Assembly (NCBI GenBank): GCA_963675595.2
Contig: CAXXLZ010000002.1
Span: 3,520,001-3,584,000 of the forward strand
Reading direction: 5' to 3'
DNA from: Thermodesulfobacteriota bacterium
GTDB lineage: Bacteria; Desulfobacterota; Desulfarculia; JACQYL01
DNA: 64,000 bases
The notes below the pieces were generated by a model. That model did not search any database and was not told where the DNA came from. It saw only the letters and a program-made list of their open reading frames with translations. A program made the translations under genes and the position numbers. Of the stretch, positions 1 to 60,158 are shown piece after piece (positions within the stretch are counted from its first letter, which is position 1; every line of letters starts with the position of its first letter).

Positions 1-785
1 ACGTCTCCAAATTCGTCCTGCATGCCCACCACAAAGGTGTGCAGGTTGGGAATGTCCTCCGCGGCGATGGCCGCCACCAAACTGCTGTCCAATCCACCGC
101 TGCAGAAGGATCCGACCGGAACCTGAGGGTCCGCCAGCAGCCTTTTCTTCACCGCCCGGATGAAGGTCTTGCGGATTCGTTCGCGCGCTTCCTCGATGTC
201 GGTGAGCAGATGGTCTTCCACCGGAGGCACCGAGTAATATTTCACGAATCCTTCTTTGGGGGTGTAGTAGTGGCCGGCGGGAAATTCGTGAACCTGATCG
301 AGCCCCGCCAAGGTCATGGCCCCCAGTTCCGAGCTGAAATAGATTTGGTCGTTGTGGTGTCCGTAATAGAGCGGCTTGATGCCGATGGGATCGCGGGCCA
401 GGAGATAGTTTTCACCGTCGAACAGAGCAAAGGCGAACATGCCGTCGAGCTCTTTTACGGCGGCGGCTCCTTTTTCCCGATACAGATGGAGAATGACCTC
501 CGAATCGGAAGAGGTCTTGAAGCGATACTGTGAAGTGAGCTTGGAGCGCAGCTTCTTGAAGTTATAAATTTCTCCGTTGCAAATGATCCCTTTGGATCCG
601 CCCTCGGCCAGAATGGGCTGATGGCCTCGGGCCACGTCCACAATGGAAAGGCGGGTGTGGCCCACCACACCGTTGGAATGGGAGTGGATGCCCCTGTCAT
701 TGGGTCCTCGGTGGCCCATGGCGTCCAGCATCCGATTGATGGTCTGTTCGTCCTTGACTCCGAAGCATCCGGCTATGCCGCACAT
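1..785 (-). CDS. Asparagine synthetase (glutamine-hydrolysing)-like Ntn amidotransferase, 3' end runs off the window
   Basis: Manual translation from ATG at 785: MCGIAGCFG...MGHRGPND...GHTRLSIVD...GHQP...NGEIYNF...SDSEVIL...LDGMFAF...ARDPIGIKPLYY...LSGGLDSS. N-terminal Cys nucleophile and AsnB motifs. Absent from the ORF track because it has no stop in the window. Confidence 0.92.
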   Translation of the reverse strand, partial: MCGIAGCFGVKDEQTINRMLDAMGHRGPNDRGIHSHSNGVVGHTRLSIVDVARGHQPILAEGGSKGIICNGEIYNFKKLRSKLTSQYRFKTSSDSEVILHLYREKGAAAVKELDGMFAFALFDGENYLLARDPIGIKPLYYGHHNDQIYFSSELGAMTLAGLDQVHEFPAGHYYTPKEGFVKYYSVPPVEDHLLTDIEEARERIRKTFIRAVKKRLLADPQVPVGSFCSGGLDSSLVAAIAAEDIPNLHTFVVGMQDEFGD

Positions 786-939
786 GTGTAACTCCTAACG
801 TTGGGGTTCTTTCCGGTTTCGAGGGGAGTATGCGCCACCCGATTCTCCAACCGGAAAACAAATATCTTCGTTCCTGTAACTTCTCGGAGAGAGGGAATAC
901 TCAGGAAAGTTTCGTCTGAAATGATCTCAATGCGAATTA

Positions 940-977
940 TTTGAATTCAAAATACATCGTGACGGATGTGTTGTCAA
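940..977 (-). promoter_or_regulatory. sigma70-type promoter (TTGACA-N17-TATTTT) with palindromic operator TTTGAATTCAAA overlapping the -10
   Basis: Minus-strand TTGACA at 977-972, -10 at 954-949, perfect 12-bp palindrome at 940-951. Confidence 0.6.
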
Positions 978-1075
978 GCAACAAACTCTTTTTTTGTCGT
1001 TGCCGATTTTCAGGGCAATCAGGGCGGATTGAAAACGGTTTGGATGCAATGGAAAAAAACGGGGTCAAAGATTAT

Positions 1076-1087
1076 TTTGTATACAAA
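1076..1087. promoter_or_regulatory. Second palindromic operator candidate TTTGTATACAAA
   Basis: Perfect palindrome related to the one at 940-951 (consensus TTTGWATWCAAA). Confidence 0.45.
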
Positions 1088-1212
1088 TTATTCCGGAAGT
1101 GCGGGAAAAGTTTTACAAGGGGCTGTCGGGAGCACTTGGGAGAGGAAACAGGGTAACGGATTCCGGTGGGAAACCCTTCTTGTACAAGGAAGTGCGGTCT
1201 TCGGTAAAGCCC

Positions 1213-1698
1213 TCAGGCCGATCCTTCCGTTTCCATGAGGCCGGTCAAAAGCTTCAGGCCTTCCGATATTTTGATCAATTCTGCTTCGGGAAGTTCCGAA
1301 AGGCCGTTCATGACTTGAGTCTGAATGGGGGGAGGTGCGTCGCGAGCGAGCGTTTCTCCCGCTTCCGTGAGTTCCACCACCACGATCCTGCGGTCCGGCG
1401 ACGTCCTGGTGCGTCTCACCAAATCTTTTTGTTCGAGTCGATCGATAATGCCCGTTACGGTGCTTGATTTTACCAGAACCTGACGCGCGATCCCGGACAG
1501 GGACAGGGGCCCGTTTTCGTATAGAGCCACTAGGCAGTTGAGCTGCGGTACGCTGATCTGGTATTTCTTGATGAGTTCTTTGGTGTAGTGGCCCCTGGCC
1601 TGAAGAAGCCGCCGAATATGGTAAATGATTTCGCGGATGAGGTCCGGTTTCACCGTGGACGACGTCTTCTGCGCGAAAGTCGATCTCTGATCGTACAT
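1213..1698 (-). CDS. MarR-family transcriptional regulator (EctR/CosR-like)
   Basis: wHTH segment ISVPQLNCL...LSLSGIARQVLVKSSTVTGIIDRLEQKDLVRRTRTSPDRR and C-terminal APPPIQ, as in EctR-type MarRs. Confidence 0.88.
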   Translation of the reverse strand: MYDQRSTFAQKTSSTVKPDLIREIIYHIRRLLQARGHYTKELIKKYQISVPQLNCLVALYENGPLSLSGIARQVLVKSSTVTGIIDRLEQKDLVRRTRTSPDRRIVVVELTEAGETLARDAPPPIQTQVMNGLSELPEAELIKISEGLKLLTGLMETEGSA

Positions 1699-1945
1699 AT
1701 TTCTTCTTACCCGAATTCAATGAGATGCCCGAAGAAACGGGATCAGACCCTTTACCAGATTCCGGCGGATTGATCAATGATGGAAAAGCGGCATTTCGGT
1801 ATCGGGTTCCCGTTTATTGAACGGTAGGCCGACCATACCGGCGAGTTTTCTTAGAAGGGAACGGGCATTATCCCGAGACGCTTCCGGAAAGGAAAAGGGC
1901 ATCCAACGACCGGGTCTCGGATATTCCGGGGAGGGGGAGTTTCGC

Positions 1946-3298
1946 ATGAATCATCGGATCGCGGTCATCGATGAGGAAGAGGTCATCGGTCAATGCCGTC
2001 GTGAACTGCCCGATCCCCCTTATCGTTTGGAAGGGTTCGACTCCATGGGACGGGCCGCCGCAGCCATCGAGGCCGATCCCCCCGACGTGGTTTTACTCGA
2101 TACGGCACTGCTGCGAGGAGCGCGGTCGGCCGATGTGGAACGTATTCAATCTTCCGCTCCCATGGCGGACCTCATTCTTACGGGGACGCGGGAGAGCATG
2201 GCAATTTCAGGGCGGGCCGAGAGCGGCTTGGCCTGTGACTCTCTGCTGAAACCTTTTCATTCCGAAGAGCTGAGAATGCGGATTCGGAGCTCGTGCGAGT
2301 CGATCCGTCTGCGCACGGAACTGCGGGACCTTCGGGAACGGATGCTGAAAGACCTGCTTCCGTGTATCGAAACGGACCGTGGGACTCTTCTGGACACCGG
2401 CCATGCGGTGAAAGCTCTGGCGGGAGACTCGGGACGATCCGTATTGATTCTCGGCGCGGCCAAATCGGTTTCCGAATTAATGGCCGCCGGCATTCATTCT
2501 CGAAGCCCCGTTCATCGATCCCCGCTGGTTTCCCTGGACTGTTCGGCGTCTCCTCGTCAAGACCTGGAAAGTGCCTTGTTCGGAGAGCACGGGACTAGTG
2601 TGTCGGGACGAAAATCCACCGGCCAACGAGGCTTAATCGCGGAGGCTTCGGGAGGCACGCTTTTTCTTGATGAGATCGGCGAGCTGCCTGAGAGGACTCA
2701 GACACGGCTTCTTAAGTACTTGGATTCGGAAGATTCTTCTTCGAAACGACCTCGGTTCATCTCGGCGATCCGGGGGAATGTGCGTGAACTTCTGGAAGGC
2801 GAGCTGCTCCACGGAGATCTCTATCGGCGGTTGGCGGAGAGTACGGTTCGAGTGCCGTCGCTCACCAAACGAGGTGAGGTGATATCGCGGATCGCGACGA
2901 TGCTGTTGACTCACTTTTCGGAGAAGCACGGCAGGGCGGTGCGGGGCTTCAGTTCGGAAGCCGCCCTGTATCTCGCCGGCCGAAGCTGGAAAGGGGGGAT
3001 CGAAGAATTACGAAACTCCGTGGAGCGCGGTGTGCTGTTGAGTTCGGGTCCCCTGGTGGATAGGAACGACCTGTTTCAGGACGACGTCAAAGCTCTTTGC
3101 GCCAAAGGAGGATTGGTGGACCCCAGGGGGGGCTTTCCGCCGCTTCCCAGGGAGGGAATCGACTTGGAGGCGCTGGAAACCCACCTCATTCGCGAAGCGT
3201 TCCACCAAGCGGGAGGAAACGAACGCAAGGCCGCCCGCCTTTTGGGGATGGGATATTATGCTTTCAGATACCGCCGGAGGCGGTTGGAGCGTCGCTGA
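1946..3298 (+). CDS. NtrC-like REC-AAA+-HTH(Fis) regulator with a degenerate ATPase/sigma54 module
   Basis: REC domain (DVVLLD...LLKPF), GGTLFLDEIGELP, WKGGIEELRNSVER, C-terminal GGNERKAARLLG. Walker A and GAFTGA are lost. Start chosen after a GGAG RBS. Confidence 0.8.
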   Translation: MNHRIAVIDEEEVIGQCRRELPDPPYRLEGFDSMGRAAAAIEADPPDVVLLDTALLRGARSADVERIQSSAPMADLILTGTRESMAISGRAESGLACDSLLKPFHSEELRMRIRSSCESIRLRTELRDLRERMLKDLLPCIETDRGTLLDTGHAVKALAGDSGRSVLILGAAKSVSELMAAGIHSRSPVHRSPLVSLDCSASPRQDLESALFGEHGTSVSGRKSTGQRGLIAEASGGTLFLDEIGELPERTQTRLLKYLDSEDSSSKRPRFISAIRGNVRELLEGELLHGDLYRRLAESTVRVPSLTKRGEVISRIATMLLTHFSEKHGRAVRGFSSEAALYLAGRSWKGGIEELRNSVERGVLLSSGPLVDRNDLFQDDVKALCAKGGLVDPRGGFPPLPREGIDLEALETHLIREAFHQAGGNERKAARLLGMGYYAFRYRRRRLERR

Positions 3299-3478
3299 CG
3301 CGCCGCGAATATAATATATTCGGCAGGTATCGTAATGCAGGGGGAAAACGGCCGAGGTGGCCCTCCTCCGCTGAGAAGGCCCCCCGGCCTTGTGATCCCC
3401 GCGCATTTCGTACGCCGTTTCTATCCGCATCGCCGTCGTCCTTCAGGAAGGATCAAGTCCGCGGGACGGCGACGCCGG

Positions 3479-5284
3479 TCAGTCGTCGAAACACGACTCC
3501 TCCGCTTTGGCGGTTAATCCTTCGCTCTCCGTCAATAGCCGCACCAGCCCGTCGGCCTTGGGAAGCTCATACCGATAGAAGTAGTCCATGGTGCGCAGCT
3601 TGCCCTGATAGAAACGGGTTTCCGCTTCGGACAGGCCTTCCGATTGCACCCGGAAGGCGGCCGAGCCCTGGAGGAGCCATTGCCACGCCACGGTGACGAT
3701 GCCGAACAATTCCAAATAAGGGACGGCGTCCGCAAGAAAACGTTCCGTTTCTCCGGAATCCGCGATCCGGAGGAGGTGGGCGGTCACATCTCGGAGCCGC
3801 TCAAGAGACTCTCGGAGCCGATGAGCATGAAACTCGAGTCCTGGGAAGGTTTCCGCCTTCCGCACGGCTTTTTCGACTTCATCGATGTACAACGAAAAGG
3901 CGCGGCCGTTGTTCATGGTGACTTTTCGACCCAAGAGGTCCAGCCCCTGAATGCCGGTAGTTCCCTCGTGGATGGGATGAATGCGGACGTCTCTGTAATA
4001 CTGTTCCAGCGGGAATTCGTCGCAATACCCGTAACCTCCCAGGCATTGGAGTCCCTGGCTTACGGAGAGTACGCCCATTTCCGAAGGGTAGGTCTTGGCC
4101 GCGGGCGTGAGGATATCCAGCAGCATTGAGTAGCGCTCCTTTTCTTCGCCCTCCGAAACCTTGATCATATCCACATACTTGGAGCACTGGAGCAGTAGGG
4201 CGACGGACCCGTCCACCACGGCGCGCTGGAAGAACAGCATGCGTTTTACGTCGGGATGATTGATGATGGGCACGGGCGGGGACGTGGGGTCTTTCGCCGA
4301 AAGCTTTCTTCCCTGCGGCCGGGTCTTTGCGTATTCCAGGGAGGCATAGTAGGCGGCGGACGCGATGCCCGCGGCTCCGATCGCCACGTCGATTCGGCCC
4401 TCGTTCATCATCTGGAACATGTACGAAAGGCCCTTGTTGGGTTCGCCTACCAAGTAGCCGCGGCAATCATCCCTTTCGCCCAAACTTAGCTGCACGATGG
4501 GAGAACCGCGGTAGCCCAGCTTATGATAAATGCCCGCCGTGTTGACGTCGTTGCTCACCAAGCTTCCGTCCTTTTCGATTCTCTTCTTGGGCACCACGAA
4601 CAGGGAGATGCCCTTCACTCCCGGAGGCGCTCCCTTGATCTTGGCCAACATCAGGTGCACCACGTTTTCAGTCCCCGTGTGGTCCGCGGCGGAGATGAAT
4701 ATCTTTTGCCCGCTGATCCTGTAGTAATCCTGATCCGTAGGAACGGCCCGGGTCGATATGTCCGTGAGGGAGCTTCCGGCCTGCGGCTCGGTCAGAGCCA
4801 TGGTCCCCTGCCATTCTCCCTCGAATATCTTGGGAATGTAGGTATCGATAAGTTCCTGTGAACCGAAGGACTCGATCAGATGAGCCGCTCCGGTGTTCAG
4901 AAACGCGTACACGGAGGCCGAATAATTGGCCGCGCTGAAGATGAATCGGCATGCGGCCGTGAGCAGATGAGGAAGCTGCTGGCCGCCTAACTCGAAGGGC
5001 GCGTTGGCGGAAATCCATCCCCCTTCTCCCAGCTGCTTCAGAATCGTGGAAACCATGGGATGGACCTTTACCTCATTGTCGGAGAACTCGGGAGGATTCC
5101 GGTCCATCTCGGCAAAACAGGGGAGAAAGAGGTCGTAAGCCATCTTCACGGCGGTTTCAAATACGATCTCGAAGATTTCTTTGTTGTGCTCTTCGTACAT
5201 CGGACAATGGGTGAGTGATTCCAGATCGAACACCTCATACAATAAAAACCGCAGATTCCTTTCGCTTACCAGCTTATCTCCCAT
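3479..5284 (-). CDS. Acyl-CoA dehydrogenase (~600-aa type)
   Basis: GTMALTEPQAGSSL, ISGQKIFIS, GVKGISLFVVPK, QCLGGYGY, IHEGTTGIQGLDLLGRK. Confidence 0.95.
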   Translation of the reverse strand: MGDKLVSERNLRFLLYEVFDLESLTHCPMYEEHNKEIFEIVFETAVKMAYDLFLPCFAEMDRNPPEFSDNEVKVHPMVSTILKQLGEGGWISANAPFELGGQQLPHLLTAACRFIFSAANYSASVYAFLNTGAAHLIESFGSQELIDTYIPKIFEGEWQGTMALTEPQAGSSLTDISTRAVPTDQDYYRISGQKIFISAADHTGTENVVHLMLAKIKGAPPGVKGISLFVVPKKRIEKDGSLVSNDVNTAGIYHKLGYRGSPIVQLSLGERDDCRGYLVGEPNKGLSYMFQMMNEGRIDVAIGAAGIASAAYYASLEYAKTRPQGRKLSAKDPTSPPVPIINHPDVKRMLFFQRAVVDGSVALLLQCSKYVDMIKVSEGEEKERYSMLLDILTPAAKTYPSEMGVLSVSQGLQCLGGYGYCDEFPLEQYYRDVRIHPIHEGTTGIQGLDLLGRKVTMNNGRAFSLYIDEVEKAVRKAETFPGLEFHAHRLRESLERLRDVTAHLLRIADSGETERFLADAVPYLELFGIVTVAWQWLLQGSAAFRVQSEGLSEAETRFYQGKLRTMDYFYRYELPKADGLVRLLTESEGLTAKAEESCFDD

Positions 5285-5569
5285 GGGAAGCACCTCCGAT
5301 GCCGTTGAAAGAGGGACTCGGGCTGATGGATCAGCCTGACCGGCGCCCCGGTGAAACAGACAATGATGTTTCTTTATGTAGGGTGGTAACGAGCGCGTCA
5401 AGTCGCTTGTACACAAGATTGCTTCAATGGTGAAGCCGTGAGCATGAAGTAGGATTCCTTGTGGGCTGTTTCTCGGCTGTGATATCTTCAAACGAATGAA
5501 AGGGGGGGCCGCCTGAAGGACGCGGCGGCGTTCTTCCGATGTGCGTTTCGAAAGGGAAAGGAGGATGTC

Positions 5570-6373
5570 ATGATCAGGAATCCCGCGGTTGCCGACCAAT
5601 TTTACCCCGGCGAACCCTCGGTGCTGTCACGAGAAGTGAAGGGTTATCTGGACCGGGAGGCGGAAAAGAGGGAGGCCCTGGCTGTGATCGCTCCTCACGC
5701 GGGGTACATGTTTTCCGGGAAGGTCGCGGGAATGGCCTTTGCTCGCGTGAAGATTCCAGGTCGAATCATTCTGCTTGGGGTGAATCATCGGGGCATCGGA
5801 GCTCCGGTTGCCGTCATGGCGGATGGAGCCTGGGAAATGCCCAACGGCCGAGTCGGGATGGACGGGGAAACGGCACGAGCCGTTATGAAGCATTCTCGAT
5901 TGGTGAAAGACGACGCGGCCGCTCATCGTTACGAGCATTCCCTGGAGGTGCAGGTCCCGTTTCTCCAGGCACTCCGGAGCGACTTCCTGTTGACTCCCAT
6001 TGCGTTGTCCTTTCTTTCGTATGACGATTGCGAGGAATTGGGCTCGGCCGTTGCGGCGGCGATCCGAGAAGTGGGGGAACCGACTCTCATTGTGGCGAGC
6101 ACGGACATGTCGCACTACGAGTCTCAGATGTCGGCGAAGCGCAAGGACGAAATGGCCATTCAACGGATTGAGGCGCTGGACCCCGCCGGTTTGCATCAAA
6201 CCGTGGTGCAAAATCGCATTTCCATGTGCGGAGTGATTCCCGTGGCGGTGACGTTGGTGGCGTGCAAGGCTCTGGGCGCGTCCCGGTGCGAACTGATCGC
6301 CTATGCCACCAGCGGAGATGTGACCCGTGACTACGACCAGGTGGTCGGGTACGCGGGGTTCGTGGTTTCCTGA
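5570..6373 (+). CDS. amrB: AmmeMemoRadiSam system protein B (MEMO1 family)
   Basis: IRNPAVADQFYP, IAPHAGYMFSG, EHSLEVQVPFLQ, VASTDMSHY, SMCG, VVGYAG. Confidence 0.93.
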   Translation: MIRNPAVADQFYPGEPSVLSREVKGYLDREAEKREALAVIAPHAGYMFSGKVAGMAFARVKIPGRIILLGVNHRGIGAPVAVMADGAWEMPNGRVGMDGETARAVMKHSRLVKDDAAAHRYEHSLEVQVPFLQALRSDFLLTPIALSFLSYDDCEELGSAVAAAIREVGEPTLIVASTDMSHYESQMSAKRKDEMAIQRIEALDPAGLHQTVVQNRISMCGVIPVAVTLVACKALGASRCELIAYATSGDVTRDYDQVVGYAGFVVS

Positions 6374-6375
6374 AG

Positions 6376-6492
6376 GACGGTTTGGAAACGCGATCCGCGG
6401 CGTTGCGCTTCATCCTTCGTCACTGCGACGCGCTTCGCAGGCATTGTTCCTCGGGTTTTGCTCGCCTTGCATGCCCTCGCTTTTCAGCCGTC
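6376..6492. repeat. MITE/REP-like non-coding element with GACGG...CCGTC ends
   Basis: Inverted ends gacggtttggaaa / ttttcagccgtc. Core GCGGCGTTGCGCTTCATCCTTCGTCACTGCG resembles a repeat I recall from deltaproteobacterial genomes. Confidence 0.6.
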
Positions 6493-6545
6493 TGCAATAA
6501 TCCGGCTTTGTCCACGGGCTGTTGAGGAGCCTTTCAAGAGCAAAC

Positions 6546-6580
6546 GGGAAGGGAAATCCGCCGCCGGCGGACTTCCCCCC
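6546..6580. terminator. GC-rich hairpin between the convergent amrB and lipoprotein genes
   Basis: gggaaatccgcc-g-ccggcggacttccc imperfect stem-loop. Confidence 0.4.
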
Positions 6581-6599
6581 GTGGGTCGATTCTTGCTTC

Positions 6600-9536
6600 C
6601 TAATCGTGCGTGGAAGTGATCAAAGCCGCATCATAGGTGGGATTCCCCACGTAGTTGTCCACACCGTAGGAAGCGCCCATGAGCAAGGAGCCGTAACCTC
6701 CGTTTACCTTGCTGTAATCGATGGGAAATAAGAGGAAGAATCCCGCCTTTACGGCTTGAGTTGACCCGTCCTTCACTTTGACGATCTGTCCGATGGTCTT
6801 GCCGGTATCGTACTGATCCACCAGTGCGCTGTAGATATCCGTAAACGCGTAGCCTTTGTAGTAGAAACTATCGCGCCCGTCCGGCAACGTGGGTCGGAAC
6901 TGATCCGAGGTGACGCATGTCGTCGTTTTGTCGGAAGAAACGGACACCCTCATGATCCTATTCGCTTCCCAAAGATCCTTGGTTTGGGTCTTGTCCGGAA
7001 AGTACAACGCGTGGGTTCGGTCGAGGGAATCCACGTCAAACCCCTCACAATATTCCATCAACAGATCAAAAGTTGTGGGATGTATGTCCGCCGCCATATT
7101 GGTGTAGATGGTTTCTTTGATATTTTGTTCTTTGACCTGGAAGGCGATGGCGCTGTTCCTGAGGTCGATGGGATCCACTCGTAGGTCCGGGTAGTACGGC
7201 GTCCGATAGTAAGGGGCGATCATTCCGTTGCTGCCGAAGATCAGTTGGAACCGACCGGCAAGCTGCAGGAATAATAACTTGGGGTCATGTTTCAGTTCGT
7301 AACGGAAGATCGGGAAAAGAGGAGATTCGCTGCGTCCGTCATATAAATCGACCGGATTCGGTGTGTCTTTGATCCGCATACCGCGATTGCTTACAATCTT
7401 GTACAAATGCTGGTTGCAGTGAACATCCTGCGTATAGCCATCATAATTGACCATATCCGCCAATTGATCCAAGGCGGCGAACACCAGATTCTGATTCTTG
7501 AAAACAAAGGGAGCGTACCCTCCGGGAGCGTCCCGCCACACGTGCATGACTTTGGGATTACATAGATATTTCACGTAATTGAACTTATCTCTATCGGATC
7601 CCAGGGACTTGTATAATTGGGAATTCTCCACGTCCCCATTCTCGGCGTCTCCGTACATGTCTACGGCGAAGTGATGCAACAGATCGACTTCGATATCCTG
7701 ACCGGACGTCATATGCGTGGTAGCCAAATCGTAGGCTTTGTCCGAGAATGCTTCATAGAAGTCCTGAATCTGAGCATTGAATGATTTCGATACGTTACTT
7801 ATCACAAAATTGCTCATGAATTGCGTGTAGTCGGCCAATTGCCTGAATAGATCCACAACCATCAACAGCTTGGTTGCATTGGCATAAGAATCGGCCCGGT
7901 CGGCCCGGTCGGGCAGGACGATCTTGCTGGTTCGGAGTGCGGAGATGACGTCTTCATAAGGAGTCGTCTCAAAGCCGCTGACGATCATGTCGTCGATTCG
8001 TAGAATATTGGAGCCTTGCTCGACAATATCGCCGTCGTCCCGGTCGCTTTCCTGTAGCAGCAGCTCCAATTCTTCGGAAAAGCGGTGATATAGCGTAGTG
8101 CCGTTATTGTCCGGCTCCGTTGGGTCCTCATCCAGGAGAGAATCCAGTCCTTCAACGTCAAGCTCGTCACTGATGTCCTTGATCTCGGTATCCACTTCGC
8201 TTCCGGCTTTCAGGTCTTTCTGGTACTGCTTCCATTCTTTGTAACTGGCGAATACGGAGTCCGGAGGCGCGCTGACTTCCTTTTTCAGTGCGGGCGTATC
8301 GAGCACTTCCACCGTGGGGGAAGTGGGTACTTTCAGAGTGGGCACGTAGAGGGGCGTGCCTTCGTCACTGAGAATCGACTTGATTTGCGAGGCGAAGGAG
8401 CCCAGGTCCATGCCGCCCGGGCGCGAATGGGCTTCTATGTGAAGATTCTTCATGGCGCCCGCCCACCCGGATTGTTGGGCGAAGGTGGCGGATGACGCGC
8501 TTTCCGCGGAGAATTTGGAGGGAACGCCGCCTCCCAGCGAAAGGGCCACGCCCACCCGCGCCTCTTCATTACCGCTGTTTTCGTCGAATTGAAGGGTGCC
8601 GTAGCCGTAGGCATAATTGGCGAAATAGAGTTTGCTCACGAAATGAGTGCCCACATGGGAATAGAAGTCCTGCACGGCATGGCCGATCTTTTGTTTCAAG
8701 GTCATCATGTTGGTGTACACAATGTTACGGACGGTCTCATTGTCCGCGAAGGTGTCGTATTGCGCTCTCAATATCCCGAAAATTTCTTCCATTTCCGATA
8801 GGAGCTGAACGTTGCCGTAGACGTTCCGTTGACTCCAGTCGACCTGTCCATGTCCTTGGTTTTTTTGGAAAATCAGCTCGTGGATATAGGTACCTTTGGA
8901 CACACCGGCGCTTTCCTCGGTGTAGTCCACATATTGCTTGATTTCACTTTCCGAAAGCGGCGTACCGATGAGATAAGGGGTCAGGTCGAATCCGGAGGCG
9001 AGATCAGAGGTGTTGAATTCATAATACGAGCCGTGCTTGCCTCGATTCATGGAAACATAGATGCTTCCGTCCGAGTTCGCCAAGGCCATGGAATGATCGG
9101 CGTGAATAGCGGCCCCCAGGCTGAACAACCCCCCGAAATTGGCGGAGGTCTTCGAGTCCGCGGATACCGCGTAGGAGAAAGACGTGGCGTTCTTATTGCT
9201 GGTCATGATGATGGCGATGTCATCTTGTGAAGCGCTCTGAGCGTTGAGATCGAGCAGAGATTCGTCGTCGATGAGTTTCAGGTTGAAAATAGGGGTGTTG
9301 TTGTATGTGGAGTCGATTACGTTGATCACCGTACCCACCACGAAATTGGATATGGAGTCGCTGTCGATCTGTTTACGCGTATTCGGGGCGGACAAACGAG
9401 CGATATCTCTTTCGTGGAATCCCAGTTCATTGATCATGGTGTCGTACTGCTCAACGCTTTCGGTTGAGCCTCCGCACCCGGCCAGCAGAAACGCTGAAAA
9501 CAAGAGTCCGATGCCCAATAAAATATTCCGCCGCAC
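6600..9536 (-). CDS. Large orphan lipoprotein with a MACPF-like N-terminal half
   Basis: AGGAG RBS then GTG at 9536. Lipobox LLAG-C. Motifs VGTVINV...PIFN, DFYSHVGTHFVSK, two Gly/Ser/Ala-rich hairpin-like segments, PYEDVI. CDS is clear; the MACPF call is inference. Confidence 0.65.
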   Translation of the reverse strand: MRRNILLGIGLLFSAFLLAGCGGSTESVEQYDTMINELGFHERDIARLSAPNTRKQIDSDSISNFVVGTVINVIDSTYNNTPIFNLKLIDDESLLDLNAQSASQDDIAIIMTSNKNATSFSYAVSADSKTSANFGGLFSLGAAIHADHSMALANSDGSIYVSMNRGKHGSYYEFNTSDLASGFDLTPYLIGTPLSESEIKQYVDYTEESAGVSKGTYIHELIFQKNQGHGQVDWSQRNVYGNVQLLSEMEEIFGILRAQYDTFADNETVRNIVYTNMMTLKQKIGHAVQDFYSHVGTHFVSKLYFANYAYGYGTLQFDENSGNEEARVGVALSLGGGVPSKFSAESASSATFAQQSGWAGAMKNLHIEAHSRPGGMDLGSFASQIKSILSDEGTPLYVPTLKVPTSPTVEVLDTPALKKEVSAPPDSVFASYKEWKQYQKDLKAGSEVDTEIKDISDELDVEGLDSLLDEDPTEPDNNGTTLYHRFSEELELLLQESDRDDGDIVEQGSNILRIDDMIVSGFETTPYEDVISALRTSKIVLPDRADRADSYANATKLLMVVDLFRQLADYTQFMSNFVISNVSKSFNAQIQDFYEAFSDKAYDLATTHMTSGQDIEVDLLHHFAVDMYGDAENGDVENSQLYKSLGSDRDKFNYVKYLCNPKVMHVWRDAPGGYAPFVFKNQNLVFAALDQLADMVNYDGYTQDVHCNQHLYKIVSNRGMRIKDTPNPVDLYDGRSESPLFPIFRYELKHDPKLLFLQLAGRFQLIFGSNGMIAPYYRTPYYPDLRVDPIDLRNSAIAFQVKEQNIKETIYTNMAADIHPTTFDLLMEYCEGFDVDSLDRTHALYFPDKTQTKDLWEANRIMRVSVSSDKTTTCVTSDQFRPTLPDGRDSFYYKGYAFTDIYSALVDQYDTGKTIGQIVKVKDGSTQAVKAGFFLLFPIDYSKVNGGYGSLLMGASYGVDNYVGNPTYDAALITSTHD

Positions 9537-10248
9537 AATTTCTCCTTTGTTCACCAGGGATTATGATTTCAAGCCAAGTCGGGCCATGGTTGCATGGCTG
9601 AAGGTCAAATGACTGTGCCGACACCTCAGGTGAACCGAGGTGTGCCTTCGTCGCGAGCATTCGGGGGGGACTCCCGATTCTAAGAGTCCGCCTCGGCTCC
9701 GCCGGCAGGCCGAGTCCATGTTGGGTCGACATAGGTGAGGAATTCGCTGGAAGCTTACACGGGTTTGCAGCGGAAACACCGATGGACGAAGCGACGCTCA
9801 AGCAGTTTTCGACACGGTCGAAAGGGAGAGCACTCTTCTTCAATTCGCTTGTCGGAGTCTCCGGAACGGAAACGGCTTGCCGCGAAATGATCCGTGCTTC
9901 AAGAAATCGATGGCCACCGGTCGGTTAGGAGCGGCCGAACAGCCTCATTCCCCCTCTGCGGATCCCCAACACGGCCACGTTGCCGCTCAATACAAGTTTT
10001 CGTCCCTAACAGATGGGAGGGAGATGCTCAAGTGTTTTATGTAATCTTGTTATGGATTTTGTTTTGGGGATTGGCGGGCGGGAAGTCACTTTTCCGTACA
10101 CCCGGAGTTCGTTTCGGCCGGCCCTTCAAAACCGAGGGAGGGACTTTTTCTTTCCATCCACGACGAAATCGGGGTATAAGTTCCAACCGTTTCAGGCCGT
10201 TTGCTTTGAGAAGAAGCGGACGGCAAAATCAATAAAGAGGATGGCAAC

Positions 10249-11649
10249 GTGGAAAATGTAATCACTCGGTTTCCCCCGAGTCCTACGGGATATCTGCACA
10301 TCGGCGGCGCACGCACCGCTTTGTTCAATTGGCTTTACGCACGCCGCAACGGCGGCAAGTTCATTCTTCGCCTCGAGGATACGGACACGGTCCGGTCTTC
10401 TCAGGAGTATGTGGACGCCATTATCGACGGCATGACGTGGCTGGGGCTGGATTGGGATGAAGGCCCCCACTATCAGAGCCGTCGTTTCGATCTTTACAAC
10501 GGATACATCGATAAGCTGCTGGAAACCGGACGCGCCTACTACTGTAACTGTCCCCCCGAAGAGCTGGAGGCCAAACGCAAAGAGGCCCTGGCCCAAGGCC
10601 GTAAGCCCATGTACGACCGGAAGTGCAGGGAGTTGGGATTGGGACCGGGCCCCGGCACCGTGGTGCGCCTCAAATCGCCTCTCGTGGGAGAGACCCGGTT
10701 TGAGGATATGATCAAGGGACATATTTCCTTTGAAAACAGTGAATTGGACGATCTGATCCTCAAACGGAGCGACGGGAGCCCCACCTATCACATGGCCGTG
10801 GTGTGCGACGACATCGACATGAAGATCACCCACGTGATCCGTGGGGACGACCATGTAAACAATACGCCTCGACAGATACTGATCTATCAGGCTTTGGAGG
10901 CCCCCCTGCCCAAGTTTGGACACGTTCCCATGATTCTGGGATCGGACAAGACCCGGTTGAGCAAGCGCCATGGCGCCACCAGCGTGCTTGCCTATCGCGA
11001 AATGGGGTATCTCCCTCAGGCGCTTCTCAACTACCTGGTGCGCCTCGGCTGGTCCCACGGGGACGAAGAGGTCTTCTCCAAGGAGGACCTGCTGGAAAAA
11101 TTCAGCCTGGAAAACGTGGGGAAATCCGCCGGTGTGTTCAACCCGGAAAAGCTGCTCTGGCTGAACAGCCATTATATCAAGGAATCCAAGCCGGAGGACC
11201 TGGTGGGTCCGCTGAAGCCTCTGCTGGAGAACCTCGGCATCCAAAATCCGGACCCGAACATCACGGCCGCGGCCGTGCCCACGCTCCAGACCCGTTCCAA
11301 GACCCTGGTGGAAATGGCGGAAGGCGCCGCCTTCTATTTCTTGGAAGAAGTGGAATATGACCAGGCTGCCGCGGACAAATTCCTGAAACCGGATTTCGTC
11401 GCTCTGTTCGAATCCATGCATCGGGGCCTTTCCGACCTCGCGGAATGGAAAGAAGCGGACATGCAGCCGGTCTTCGAGAAGCTCATGGAGGAACAGGGCC
11501 TCAAGTTCGGCAAGATCGCCCAGCCCCTGCGCGTGGCGCTTACCGGAAAGACCGTCAGTCCGGGCATCTTCGAAGTTCTCGAAGTGTTGGGCAAAGAGAA
11601 GAGCCTGAACCGGATCCAGCGGGCCCTGGACCGGATGCGCGGCGACTGA
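10249..11649 (+). CDS. gltX: Glutamate--tRNA ligase
   Basis: TRFPPSPTGYLHIGG (HIGH), IRGDDHVNNT, RLSKRHG (KMSKS). Confidence 0.98.
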   Translation: MENVITRFPPSPTGYLHIGGARTALFNWLYARRNGGKFILRLEDTDTVRSSQEYVDAIIDGMTWLGLDWDEGPHYQSRRFDLYNGYIDKLLETGRAYYCNCPPEELEAKRKEALAQGRKPMYDRKCRELGLGPGPGTVVRLKSPLVGETRFEDMIKGHISFENSELDDLILKRSDGSPTYHMAVVCDDIDMKITHVIRGDDHVNNTPRQILIYQALEAPLPKFGHVPMILGSDKTRLSKRHGATSVLAYREMGYLPQALLNYLVRLGWSHGDEEVFSKEDLLEKFSLENVGKSAGVFNPEKLLWLNSHYIKESKPEDLVGPLKPLLENLGIQNPDPNITAAAVPTLQTRSKTLVEMAEGAAFYFLEEVEYDQAAADKFLKPDFVALFESMHRGLSDLAEWKEADMQPVFEKLMEEQGLKFGKIAQPLRVALTGKTVSPGIFEVLEVLGKEKSLNRIQRALDRMRGD

Positions 11650-12582: not shown

Positions 12583-14835
12583 CTATTTCGTATACCCTGC
12601 AATGAAGGCTACGTAGTCCTGATTCCCCGTGTTGGCCGTGACATCCGTGTAGCTTTTGTTCGAAGGCTCGAACACGTAGCCGCTGAGGGAAGGCGTCACG
12701 GTGCCGCTCCACCCGGCCGGCACGCCGTAAGCGTAGTCCCCGTTGGCGTCGGTGGTGGTACTACCGGCGCCGTCGCTGAAAGTGACCGTCACGCCCTGCA
12801 TGGGGCTCCCGCCCAATACAAAGCTGATGTTTCCCGAAATGAAGACCATGATTTGGGCCGCATAGAAGCCCGTATAATCCTGGTTGTTCACACTGGAAGT
12901 CAGGTCGGTGTAGCTTCTGGAAGTGGGATCAAAGGTGTATCCGCTCAAGGAAGGCGTTACGGTGCCGTTCCACCCCGCGGGCACACCGTAAGAGTATTCT
13001 CCGTTGGCATCGGTGGTGGTACTACCGGCGCCCCCGCTGAAGGTGACCGTTACGCCCTGCAGGGGCGTGCCTCCCAAAGTAAAGGAGATCGTTCCGGAAA
13101 CGAATACCGTGGCTTGTGCCGCCACGAAGCCGGTAAAATTCTGATTCAGGTAATCGAATACGACGTTGGTGTAGGAGCGCGACGTGGGGTCGAACGTATA
13201 ACCGCTCAGCGAAGGAGTCACCGTTCCGGACCAGCCGTCGGGTACCTGCATGCCGTAATCCCCGTTGGCGTCGGTGGTAACGGAGCCTAGTCCACCGCTG
13301 AACGTCACAGTTACGTTTTGCATGGGGGAGCCGCCCAGCACGAAGATCACCCTGCCGGAAACGATGTGGCCCGAACCGCCCGTGGACGTGCCTTCAAAAT
13401 TCTGGTCGATGAGGTTCGTGTTCACCGCGCCGTAGCTAAGGGACGGGGGGACGAAGGTCCAGCCGCTCTTGGAGGGGGTGGCCGTTCCGGTGTAGGGTGC
13501 GGTGAGCTGCTTGCTGTAGTGGCCCGAGGCGTCGGTGGTGGTGGTGCCTCCGCCGTTGGTATAGCTGATTGTCACGTCGGGGATGGGGTTATAAGGCGGG
13601 GAATCTTCCACCACGATTCCGGAGAGCGTTACGGTCTGTGGGGAAGTCGCTGTAGCTTCGTAGTCTTCTCCGGTCACGTCGGCCGTGACGTTGGTATAGC
13701 CCTTGGAAGACGGCGCGAACGTGTACCCGCCCAGTGAAGGCGTGATGGTGCCGCTCCAGCCGTCGGGAACCGGGAGACTGTAATTGCCCGACGCGTCGGT
13801 GTTGGTCGAGCCCGCGCCGTTGTCGCCGGAAATCGTTACGCCCGAAAGCGGAGTCCCTCCCGGTGCGACCGTCACGGCGCCCGATATCGCGTGCGTCCCG
13901 GACGAAGAAACCGAAATGTATTCCGTGCGCAGGGAAATGAATGCCACGCCGTTATATACTACGGTACGCCAGACGTCATAAGCGCCCGGAGATGCGTAGG
14001 TGTGTTGCGGGTTCTGGTCCGTGCTCATGCCGCCGTCGCCGAAATCCCAGTCGTATGCCGAAAGCATGACATTGGACGTATCGGTGAACTGCACGGACAG
14101 AGGCGCCGCACCGGACGTCGGACTTGCCGTGTAGTCAATGTCCAACGGTGCGGGCGGGTACAGCTTGAACACCTGATAGCCGAAGTTGTTGGCCTGCGGA
14201 TGGAGCGGGTCTGCCGAGACGGAATGCACGGTGATCACGCCCTGGCCCGCGCCGCTGAATTCCATTTCGATTTCTTCCGAACCGTCGCCCAGACTGGGGG
14301 CGACCAAGGTGATGTCCGTGGGATCGCCCACAAAGGCCTGAAAAGTCTCCGCATCGAAGGTGTAAACCACCACCATGCCTCCGGCGGCGTATTCCTGAAC
14401 GTACAGGTTCACCGAACTTGATGCGTCTTTCCAGATGCCCGAGTGGTCCGTGCGGATGGCGTCGAAGATCTTCTCGATTTCCTCTTCGAAAAGGATCTCG
14501 GGCGATCCGGTCGTCAGGTCCCACAGTGTGGCCACGGCTTCGGCGTCGCTCGAGAATTCAATGCGCAAACGACGATCGGAATCCGGGTCCAGTGAGTCCG
14601 CCTGGAAATTGTTCAGCACGATATCGGCTTGAAATGCGTAAAACGTAAGGCCGTCCGGAGTATAGATGACGATGGTGGATCCGGTTTCGTAATTCTGGAT
14701 ATAGAAGTTGTGCGTTGTGCCGGTGGGCGTATCCTTCCAAATACCCTGGGTTTGAGCCCATCCCGGGGCCGTATGGAGCCAAAGGATCAGTAAACCCGTC
14801 AATAGAATCCAAAGCTTGTAACGTGCCGAACGCAT
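12583..14835 (-). CDS. Secreted surface protein: 2x GIWKD domain + PKD + 5 beta-sandwich (carboxypeptidase-regulatory-like) repeats
   Basis: GGAG RBS and signal peptide ending GWA-Q. PKD motif PTSGAAPLSVQFTDTS...WDFGDG...QNPQHTY. Repeats SG.V...GVTVTFS.G.GSTTTDANG.Y...VP.GWSGTVTPSLSGYTF.P. Confidence 0.88.
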   Translation of the reverse strand: MRSARYKLWILLTGLLILWLHTAPGWAQTQGIWKDTPTGTTHNFYIQNYETGSTIVIYTPDGLTFYAFQADIVLNNFQADSLDPDSDRRLRIEFSSDAEAVATLWDLTTGSPEILFEEEIEKIFDAIRTDHSGIWKDASSSVNLYVQEYAAGGMVVVYTFDAETFQAFVGDPTDITLVAPSLGDGSEEIEMEFSGAGQGVITVHSVSADPLHPQANNFGYQVFKLYPPAPLDIDYTASPTSGAAPLSVQFTDTSNVMLSAYDWDFGDGGMSTDQNPQHTYASPGAYDVWRTVVYNGVAFISLRTEYISVSSSGTHAISGAVTVAPGGTPLSGVTISGDNGAGSTNTDASGNYSLPVPDGWSGTITPSLGGYTFAPSSKGYTNVTADVTGEDYEATATSPQTVTLSGIVVEDSPPYNPIPDVTISYTNGGGTTTTDASGHYSKQLTAPYTGTATPSKSGWTFVPPSLSYGAVNTNLIDQNFEGTSTGGSGHIVSGRVIFVLGGSPMQNVTVTFSGGLGSVTTDANGDYGMQVPDGWSGTVTPSLSGYTFDPTSRSYTNVVFDYLNQNFTGFVAAQATVFVSGTISFTLGGTPLQGVTVTFSGGAGSTTTDANGEYSYGVPAGWNGTVTPSLSGYTFDPTSRSYTDLTSSVNNQDYTGFYAAQIMVFISGNISFVLGGSPMQGVTVTFSDGAGSTTTDANGDYAYGVPAGWSGTVTPSLSGYVFEPSNKSYTDVTANTGNQDYVAFIAGYTK
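12600..13370 (-). repeat. Intragenic tandem repeat, 261-bp period, three closely related copies
   Basis: The anchor aaggcgt/aaggagt recurs at 12690, 12951 and 13212. Confidence 0.85.
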
Positions 14836-59642: not shown

Positions 59643-60158
59643 GTCCCTTTCCCATATCCCCGAAAGTGCCGCTGCCGAGCGCAAGGAATGTCCGGTCTTT
59701 TGGGAATTCCGTTCTTTGGGAATAGAAGTCGGTTCCGCGTCTTTGACGGATGCACGAGGTATCGCAGGCCGTGCTCGACTCCAGTTAAGACCGGCATAAG
59801 CCGTCATGCGGTGCGCCGGCGGGGAAGCGCGGGCCTTAATTTGGTGTCGAGTAGGCTCCGGGTATTGGATTTGCTTTGACGACGGCTTGGGGTGAGTGTA
59901 ATTTTGAGAAATGTAAAGTTCCCGCTCTTTTTCGGATACCTCTAAAAAAATAAGAAGCCTGAACACATACTTGAGCCGGCTCCGAATCGATTCGGCTTTC
60001 AGCTGGGTTTCGTTCGAATCGACGGAGTCGTCTTGGATTGAGAGGGAAAATAATTCCTTCATACTTCACAAATTCATGAATTTTGGTGGGCCGGCATGTA
60101 AGGACCGAAAATCATAATAGGGTGAGTGATGCCAACGCAAGAGGGCAAGGGGGACGCC

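Follow-up and report, generated by a model that had tools for sequence, protein, structure and literature searches.

A rare lipoprotein family whose front half is divergent but MACPF-like: a member encoded between memo and gltX, and its possible role in pore-forming antagonism

The window analysed here is a stretch of 64,000 nucleotides from the genome of a Thermodesulfobacteriota bacterium (contig CAXXLZ010000002.1, positions 3,520,001 to 3,584,000), and our subject is a gene on its minus strand that encodes a large lipoprotein with a front half resembling the MACPF (perforin-like) domain. A single open reading frame (ORF) of 984 aa (P0001) extends over 6600..9554 on the minus strand. Because the motif AAGGAG directly precedes the GTG at 9536 this is the likely start, giving a product of 978 aa. 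Residue numbers refer to the 984-aa frame; for numbering from GTG 9536, 6 should be subtracted. With the lipobox LLAG-C27, the lipoprotein of ~980 aa in the original prediction is confirmed. The features of the locus are:

5570..6373, plus strand: Memo-family gene (PF01875, E 4e-71), convergent with the lipoprotein gene, which it borders on the left at the insertion site
6386..6527, no strand assigned: dispersed ~140-bp repeat between memo and the stop codon of the lipoprotein gene (blastn, genome)
6600..9536, minus strand: MACPF-like lipoprotein gene, 978 aa from GTG 9536; the frame extends to the GTG at 9554
9474..9536, minus strand: lipoprotein signal peptide and lipobox LLAG-C27 (from the sequence)
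10249..11649, plus strand: glutamyl-tRNA synthetase-like gene (gltX), right border, divergent (from motifs, and adjacency in relatives)

The gene is present as one copy in its genome and stands alone between core genes, as had been described. The Memo-family gene borders it on one side and on the other lies 10249..11649, which we take to be gltX-like from its HIGH/KLSKR-type motifs; the upstream gap, earlier put at ~700 bp, is 694 bp from 9554 and 712 bp from 9536. No co-oriented partner gene or immunity-like gene was seen beside it. Promoter and terminator scans at the locus gave matches at chance level only, and an Rfam scan of window positions 6300-10300 found no match. In E. coli the residue following the lipobox cysteine guides lipoprotein sorting (the +2 rule); with glycine at +2, the window lipoprotein is predicted to be sorted to the outer membrane.

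The protein was first thought to be an orphan, and this does not hold. Twelve relatives at 30-57% identity cover 79-100% of its length, and 61 cluster-level representatives were found at E≤0.001, thinly spread in Pseudomonadota and Desulfobacterota. An alignment of 44 rows (A2) was built from the window protein, the 12 first relatives and, out of 59 further ones, 31; P0068 was left out, and so were 27 proteins no longer than 573 aa. The family ranges from 860 to 1,280 aa in length, identities in A2 are 20-57%, and a heuristic lipobox is present in 22 of the 44 rows. Named carriers are Desulfuromonas, Desulfobacterales, Desulfobacterium, Enterobacterales, Ottowia and Pigmentiphaga. The family was found in none of 40 relatives and in none of 400 genomes of the phylum, and in 3 of 301 genomes of the betaproteobacterial family of Ottowia. 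A second word-index search seeded with A2 gave no additional relatives, and none was found in plasmid and viral-contig collections. There was no meaningful match to NCBIfam or PADLOC among the 44 members, nor to PHROGs (0/3). A search of the open-access full-text literature (subscription journals and supplements lay outside its scope) found no description of the family. Judged from its sequences, the family is unannotated and rare, with a front half that is divergent from known MACPFs and not a member of PF01823. A FastTree tree was used solely for viewing clades. We note that P0036, P0037 and P0068 have ~190 additional N-terminal residues past the lipobox, and that P0048-P0053 form a distant clade of ~1,180 aa with N-termini that are not of the lipoprotein type.

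The regions of the window protein are, from N- to C-terminus:

8964..9362, minus strand: MACPF-like block 1, residues 65-197 (first strands, beta1, hairpin resembling transmembrane hairpin (TMH) 1, beta2; hhalign E 8e-7)
9066..9194, minus strand: TMH1-like segment, residues 121-163, rich in small residues, of alternating polarity, with a turn at G142
8703..8963, minus strand: insert 1, residues 198-284, ~87 aa, partly helical by periodicity, between the two MACPF-like blocks
8364..8702, minus strand: MACPF-like block 2, residues 285-397 (signature, beta3, TMH2-like hairpin, beta4, helix; hhalign E 5e-4)
8598..8663, minus strand: altered signature, residues 298-319 (A2 columns)
8451..8585, minus strand: TMH2-like segment, residues 324-368, of alternating polarity
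8010..8363, minus strand: insert 2, residues 398-515 (Pro-rich linker, conserved PPDSxFxSYxxWK helix, variable acidic region)
7932..8009, minus strand: conserved block, residues 516-541 (RID...GFETTPY..VI..LR), candidate last MACPF strand (conservation 0.56)
6603..7922, minus strand: C-terminal half, residues 545-984 (predicted helical bundle, W..APGGY motif, mixed region)

The motifs by which a MACPF domain was originally proposed are all present in the order given, with VGTVINV...TPIFNL at 73-92, a segment at 126-155, DFYSHVGTHFVSKLYFAN at 296-313, a second segment at 334-381 and TPYEDVI at 531-537. Comparator bacterial MACPFs were gathered by PF01823 genome searches and a homologue search, and seven of the nine went into the alignment; L019 and L020 failed to align, P0084 was omitted as a near-duplicate, and P0089 has no recorded PF01823 label. 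The set includes the uncharacterised PF01823 proteins L010, L021 and P0085-P0088, which stand for the proteobacterial Mpf-type MACPFs. In profile-profile comparison, family residues 60-545 matched the alignment of seven MACPFs with E 1.1e-5, against E 0.62 for the C-terminal half and E 0.048 for the reversed alignment. A global hhalign was set aside, its second half being mis-registered across insert 1. When split, residues 60-200 (E 8e-7) and 280-400 (E 5e-4) matched the seven MACPFs colinearly, and the observed score was reached by none of 60 block shuffles for either block. Further controls gave E 0.021 and 0.32 on reversal and E 0.91 against an alignment of GH64 sequences. The match takes in anchors outside the hairpins, i.e. 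G..., PIFD, helix-G-x-x-F-V and the post-beta4 W helix, in order. Across the 44 rows, segments 121-163 and 324-368 have alternating hydropathy and the highest content of small residues at the sequence level; the TMH2-like segment is the family's peak in Gly/Ala/Ser/Thr, and the turn residue G142 is Gly in 40/44 members.

A decoy pool of 7,766 sequences (7,757 genome ORFs and nine MACPFs) was searched with family hidden Markov models (HMMs). That for residues 65-197 ranked the window gene 1st and MACPFs 2nd, 3rd, 4th and 5th, and that for residues 285-400 placed MACPFs at ranks 3, 5, 24, 34 and 36; reciprocally, a MACPF HMM brought 16 of the 44 family members within the top 100 of ~7,800. The five neighbour sets listed from the ESM-Atlas all lie at 0.91-0.92, four being MACPF or CDC clusters (one listed set is PF01289, at 0.91) and one unnamed. 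The top match of the A2 profile in the PDB is stonustoxin alpha (4wvm_A), at E 0.019 over beta1-TMH1-beta2. The divergent MACPF-like domain of the original prediction is upheld by the profile-profile and decoy tests, which are above chance, by the Atlas neighbours and by this weak PDB match, and the front half very probably shares ancestry with the MACPF/CDC superfamily.

Several results weigh against this. Pfam gave a meaningful match for none of the 44 long members (PF01823 0/44 at E≤0.5), and PF01823 has no match anywhere in the source genome. With the HMM for residues 65-197, three other MACPFs fell at ranks 54-171 and two of the nine were unlisted. No family member reached E<1 with the reciprocal MACPF HMM, yet five decoys did. 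In the Atlas the recognition value, at 1796, is low, and the shared features (155-169) are under the 170 typical for true family matches. The 15-row N-terminal profile A4 retrieved neither stonustoxin nor any MACPF from the PDB, where sequence-profile searches with A1, A3 and A4 gave no significant match, and the family profile did not match one lone MACPF sequence (E 0.56). The MACPF fold itself is a prediction from sequence comparison. The likeness might be convergent, reflecting Gly/Ser/Ala-rich amphipathic hairpins of some other beta-pore or beta-sheet protein, and the lack of Pfam and significant PDB matches, the unplaced last MACPF strand and a comparator alignment of seven rows are in keeping with this. 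We regard convergence as very improbable, given the ordered anchors outside the hairpins, blocks that are contiguous in the template and the failure of composition-preserving shuffles to reproduce the score.

The MACPF signature is Y/W-G-T/S-H-F/Y-x6-GG (PMC2954219). In the family G302 is present in 44/44 members and F305 in 42/44, and T-H is confined to the clade of the window protein (13/44). The GG pair at 312-313 is found in none of the 44, which agrees with its reported absence from the window protein and is a further point against a conventional MACPF. Since the hinge glycines are >95% conserved in MACPF/CDCs, this is a real departure from them (PMC10344926). Residues 317 and 319 are Gly, Ala or Ser in 44/44 (small-x-small). 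Where a second glycine pair is expected after beta4, P379 is present in 44/44, G380 in 3/44 and G381 in 26/44, and the helix past beta4 has W, F or Y at 387 in 44/44. Neither the YGR-type CDC/CDCL motif (F/Y-F/Y-Xn-YGR) nor a GG pair occurs in alignment columns 285-420.

In the comparator MACPFs the two blocks are contiguous (template 22-135 and 137-252), whereas in the family ~87 residues lie between them. Insert 2 has no match to the MACPF alignment (E 0.34). The last MACPF strand could not be placed: residues 505-575 gave E 0.8, and E 0.044 was obtained on five columns near 940-944. Thus TPYEDVI, put forward as a MACPF element, found no match to that strand. Loss of the GG pair throughout and ~200 aa of inserts could mean that the protein is a non-lytic surface protein with a locked MACPF fold, serving in adhesion, in envelope structure or as a scaffold for partners such as the GH64-like enzyme described below, which is likewise a lipoprotein. 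Non-lytic and transport-linked MACPFs have been discussed for Bth-MACPF (PMC2954219). We think this rather unlikely; the hairpins keep their membrane-type alternation at 20-57% identity, the residues at 317/319 are invariably small and 379 is invariably Pro, and at least five members have no signal peptide, a poor fit for a role in surface structure.

The C-terminal half appears helical over ~556-665 by periodicity. It is conserved across the family (G678 and G679 in 44/44), with variable patches at about 691-720, 781-840 and 871-930. Searched against the PDB and the ESM-Atlas, it matched no family or structure and gave no usable Atlas result, so that the unrecognised C-terminus of the original prediction is still unmatched. 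The novel targeting domain proposed there is doubtful, the conservation of this region being unlike the variable receptor-binding domains of BSAPs.

The gene has a GC content of 0.517, compared with 0.599 and 0.582 in the flanking genes, and falls at the 5th percentile of 1,707 long genome ORFs. The earlier observation that it is AT-rich is therefore correct, but it is no sign of foreign DNA. GC at third codon positions (GC3) is at the 31st percentile of the 1,707 ORFs, and codon usage is nearer the genome mean than that of 86% of 246 ORFs of similar length; as both are typical of the genome, the low GC is an effect of amino-acid content. The proposed codon and GC profile thus returned low GC and no sign of foreign DNA, and recent transfer as judged from base composition is rejected.

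A close memo orthologue is present in five of the six relatives searched, in each case 125-444 bp from gltX; in the window the distance is 3,878 bp. As memo and gltX are adjacent in these five relatives, the gene was inserted between them. No intergenic sequence is common to the relatives' memo-gltX junctions and the window. Acquisition of the gene is supported by synteny and patchy spread, and not by base composition, so the horizontal acquisition originally proposed survives on the first grounds only. In strain X3 (~98% identical) the gene lies at the same gltX flank, and the contig diverges from the window past the stop codon. The X3 copy has a break at 8225-8230, and the 6-bp overlap there is what an insertion would leave. 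Among the 18 differences listed between the two copies, 12 are synonymous. No contig joined across the gene was found in four sequencing runs. The L002 homologue is interrupted near its 5′ end by an IS3-like transposase frame (L002 8206-9375, by inspection). Such a pattern is expected of an accessory gene that is either old or has adapted to its genome and is frequently lost. The repeat at 6386-6527 has 111 blastn matches in the genome at E≤1e-5, 83 of them >100 bp; copies among the matches listed are ~70-88% identical, and it resembles a MITE or REP element. Contigs of other sequencing runs match its first 45 bp as well, and it has no Rfam match.

Strain-level loss and stand-alone insertion next to housekeeping genes would also suit a BSAP-style antibacterial pore former, one that kills bacteria which are related to the producer or live alongside it and is directed at a surface glycan or outer-membrane protein missing from the producer itself. 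The layout is BSAP-like (lipidated Cys, linker, MACPF domain, C-terminal domain). BSAP genes are linked to replaced outer-membrane protein or glycan genes, and none lies next to the gene, either in the window or at the loci that were read. The family keeps its C-terminal domain across phyla, in contrast to the great variation of this domain among BSAPs, and it fails PF01823. An antibacterial role is unlikely in our estimate.

In four betaproteobacterial genomes (4/4) the homologue lies downstream of, and on the same strand as, a gene for a Cys-rich, weakly GH64-like lipoprotein of ~700 aa:

L003 4518-6719
L005 4632-6731
L017 about 9420-11400, minus strand
L018 3263-5437, minus strand

The gap to the homologue is 69-76 bp in three genomes and 1.1 kb in L003. 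The partners are 70-75% identical, and so the four cases are not independent. Aligned with hhalign to eight GH64 sequences, the partner gave two ordered motif matches (E 0.0027 and 0.044), scoring 32.5 compared with 24.7 for the best of 40 shuffles. The motifs compared included the N-x-x-x-V-D acid and the AYGF-x-x-DD block, which have a catalytic role in GH64. This is suggestive only of a beta-1,3-glucanase-like (GH64) lipoprotein. On the other side, matches to PF16483 (GH64) had E 0.053 and 0.013 at 13-15 bits, where the cut-off is 27; PF16483 was above cut-off in none of five genomes; and the partner gene is absent from the window genome and from five non-betaproteobacterial loci (L001, L002, L004, L007 and L008). 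A PDB search by sequence profile gave nothing significant. The partner has one unannotated relative, on a cyanobacterial plasmid.

The members in L001, L002, L004, L007 and L008 lack a signal peptide, and their reading frames are closed by stops a short way upstream. In L007 a RdrA/RdrB (RADAR) pair (402-5572; E 1e-30 and 2e-33) lies directly upstream on the same strand, and the L004 homologue is 3-5 kb from PDC-S60 and HEC-05 matches (L004 1591-4929 and 10978-12216). These members could be self-killing defence effectors, gasdermin-like, that perforate the producer's own membrane after phage or stress signals. This is most plausible for the signal-less forms, and for the family we consider it improbable. 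The copy in the window carries a lipobox, and no defence genes lie beside it; by inspection the neighbours in L001 and L008 are not defence-like, one of them having been scanned against PADLOC; meaningful PADLOC matches number 0/44; and defence islands gather any mobile gene. In L004, insertion sequence and reverse transcriptase-like fragments surround the homologue, and an unannotated secreted protein of 412 aa is encoded ~55 bp downstream. Elsewhere in the window, paralogous secreted proteins are encoded at 12583-14835 (minus strand), 60126-62372 (plus strand) and apparently also on the plus strand from ~62400 to the window end, with a common N-terminal repeat, a PKD domain and several CarboxypepD_reg-like repeats (Pfam scan of the 12583-14835 copy).

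Our preferred reading is that this lipoprotein of a rare family, with its divergent MACPF-like front and its gene inserted between memo and gltX, acts in pore-forming antagonism, with eukaryotic microbes such as grazing protists, fungi or algae as predicted targets. We hold it tentatively, as close to evenly balanced; pore formation and a microbial target are predictions from sequence, and the target is the weakest step. The protein would be exported and lipid anchored, by analogy with BSAPs and Mpf2Ba1, and then released from the producer via vesicles or proteolysis. It would bind its target through the C-terminal half, probably the variable patches, and the subunits would assemble into a ring. 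The bent sheet would straighten, with G317-x-G319 and P379-x-G381 perhaps replacing the usual glycine hinges, and TMH1 (121-163) and TMH2 (324-368) would insert as two hairpins per subunit to form a beta-barrel. The two inserts may hold the monomer latent until binding or cleavage. Protease activation has been described for Bacteroides protoxins (PMC8406203).

A eukaryotic target is favoured because there is no immunity neighbour, the C-terminal half is conserved and the partner is glucanase-like. Non-BSAP MACPF/CDCs generally act across kingdoms (10.1101/2025.01.06.631476). Equally, BSAPs need no eukaryotic target. A bolder form of the proposal, that this is an undescribed MACPF/CDC branch which opens its pore without the GG hinge and has a new 440-residue domain, is paired in Betaproteobacteria with a beta-1,3-glucanase-like lipoprotein in a two-part weapon that breaches the walls of fungi, oomycetes or algae, and has signal-less copies acting as suicide effectors in defence islands, we consider unlikely as a whole.

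Work on bacterial MACPFs has centred on Bacteroidales and a small number of insecticidal Proteobacteria. Being missed entirely by Pfam and without the hinge glycines, yet keeping both hairpins, the present family is a natural test of the need for the hinge in pore opening, and it offers a large domain without a detected match. Should the glucanase link hold, the family would serve as a model of the access of pore formers to eukaryotes with a cell wall; if it is non-lytic, it would be a bacterial example of a locked MACPF fold.

Among known systems, stonustoxin alpha (4wvm) is a MACPF/CDC member with a helical bundle after the pore domain, and in the family a predicted helical bundle likewise follows the pore domain. 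Unlike the family, stonustoxin alpha is an animal two-subunit venom protein, and the family has no match to its other domains. Ordinary PF01823 MACPFs are scarce in these phyla (2/401 and 2/351 genomes); L010 856-2370, L019 2009-4708 and L020 3074-5995 (all minus strand) are of this kind, L010 with a Vps62-like tail. The Pepco barrels of 10.1101/2025.11.14.688446 are unrelated. CDCLs are a bacterial MACPF/CDC branch that was earlier overlooked by sequence searches (PMC7527733); one Atlas neighbour set of the family is PF01289, but the family has neither YGR on predicted beta3 nor a conserved GG pair. Compared with Mpf2Ba1 and Mpf1Aa1/Plu-MACPF (PMC10344926), the family has the same colinear beta1-TMH1-beta2 and signature-TMH2-beta4-helix, with a TMH1 of nearly the same length. 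Mpf-type MACPFs have ~500 aa in two domains, GG, and a small beta-prism or Vps62-like tail, whereas the family has 860-1,280 aa and no such tail was detected. Unlike BSAPs, the family fails PF01823, lacks GG, has much longer inserts and a conserved C-terminal half of 440 aa, has its named carriers outside Bacteroidota and includes members without a signal peptide. In common with BSAPs and Bth-MACPF (3kk7; 10.1101/2025.01.06.631476, PMC2954219) it has a lipobox, a linker, a MACPF-like domain and a C-terminal domain. Its TMH-like segments are ~43-45 aa, compared with 48 and 57 in Bth-MACPF, and, as in Bth-MACPF, beta2 and beta3 are separated by an insertion and the post-beta4 helix has a conserved aromatic residue (PMC2954219).

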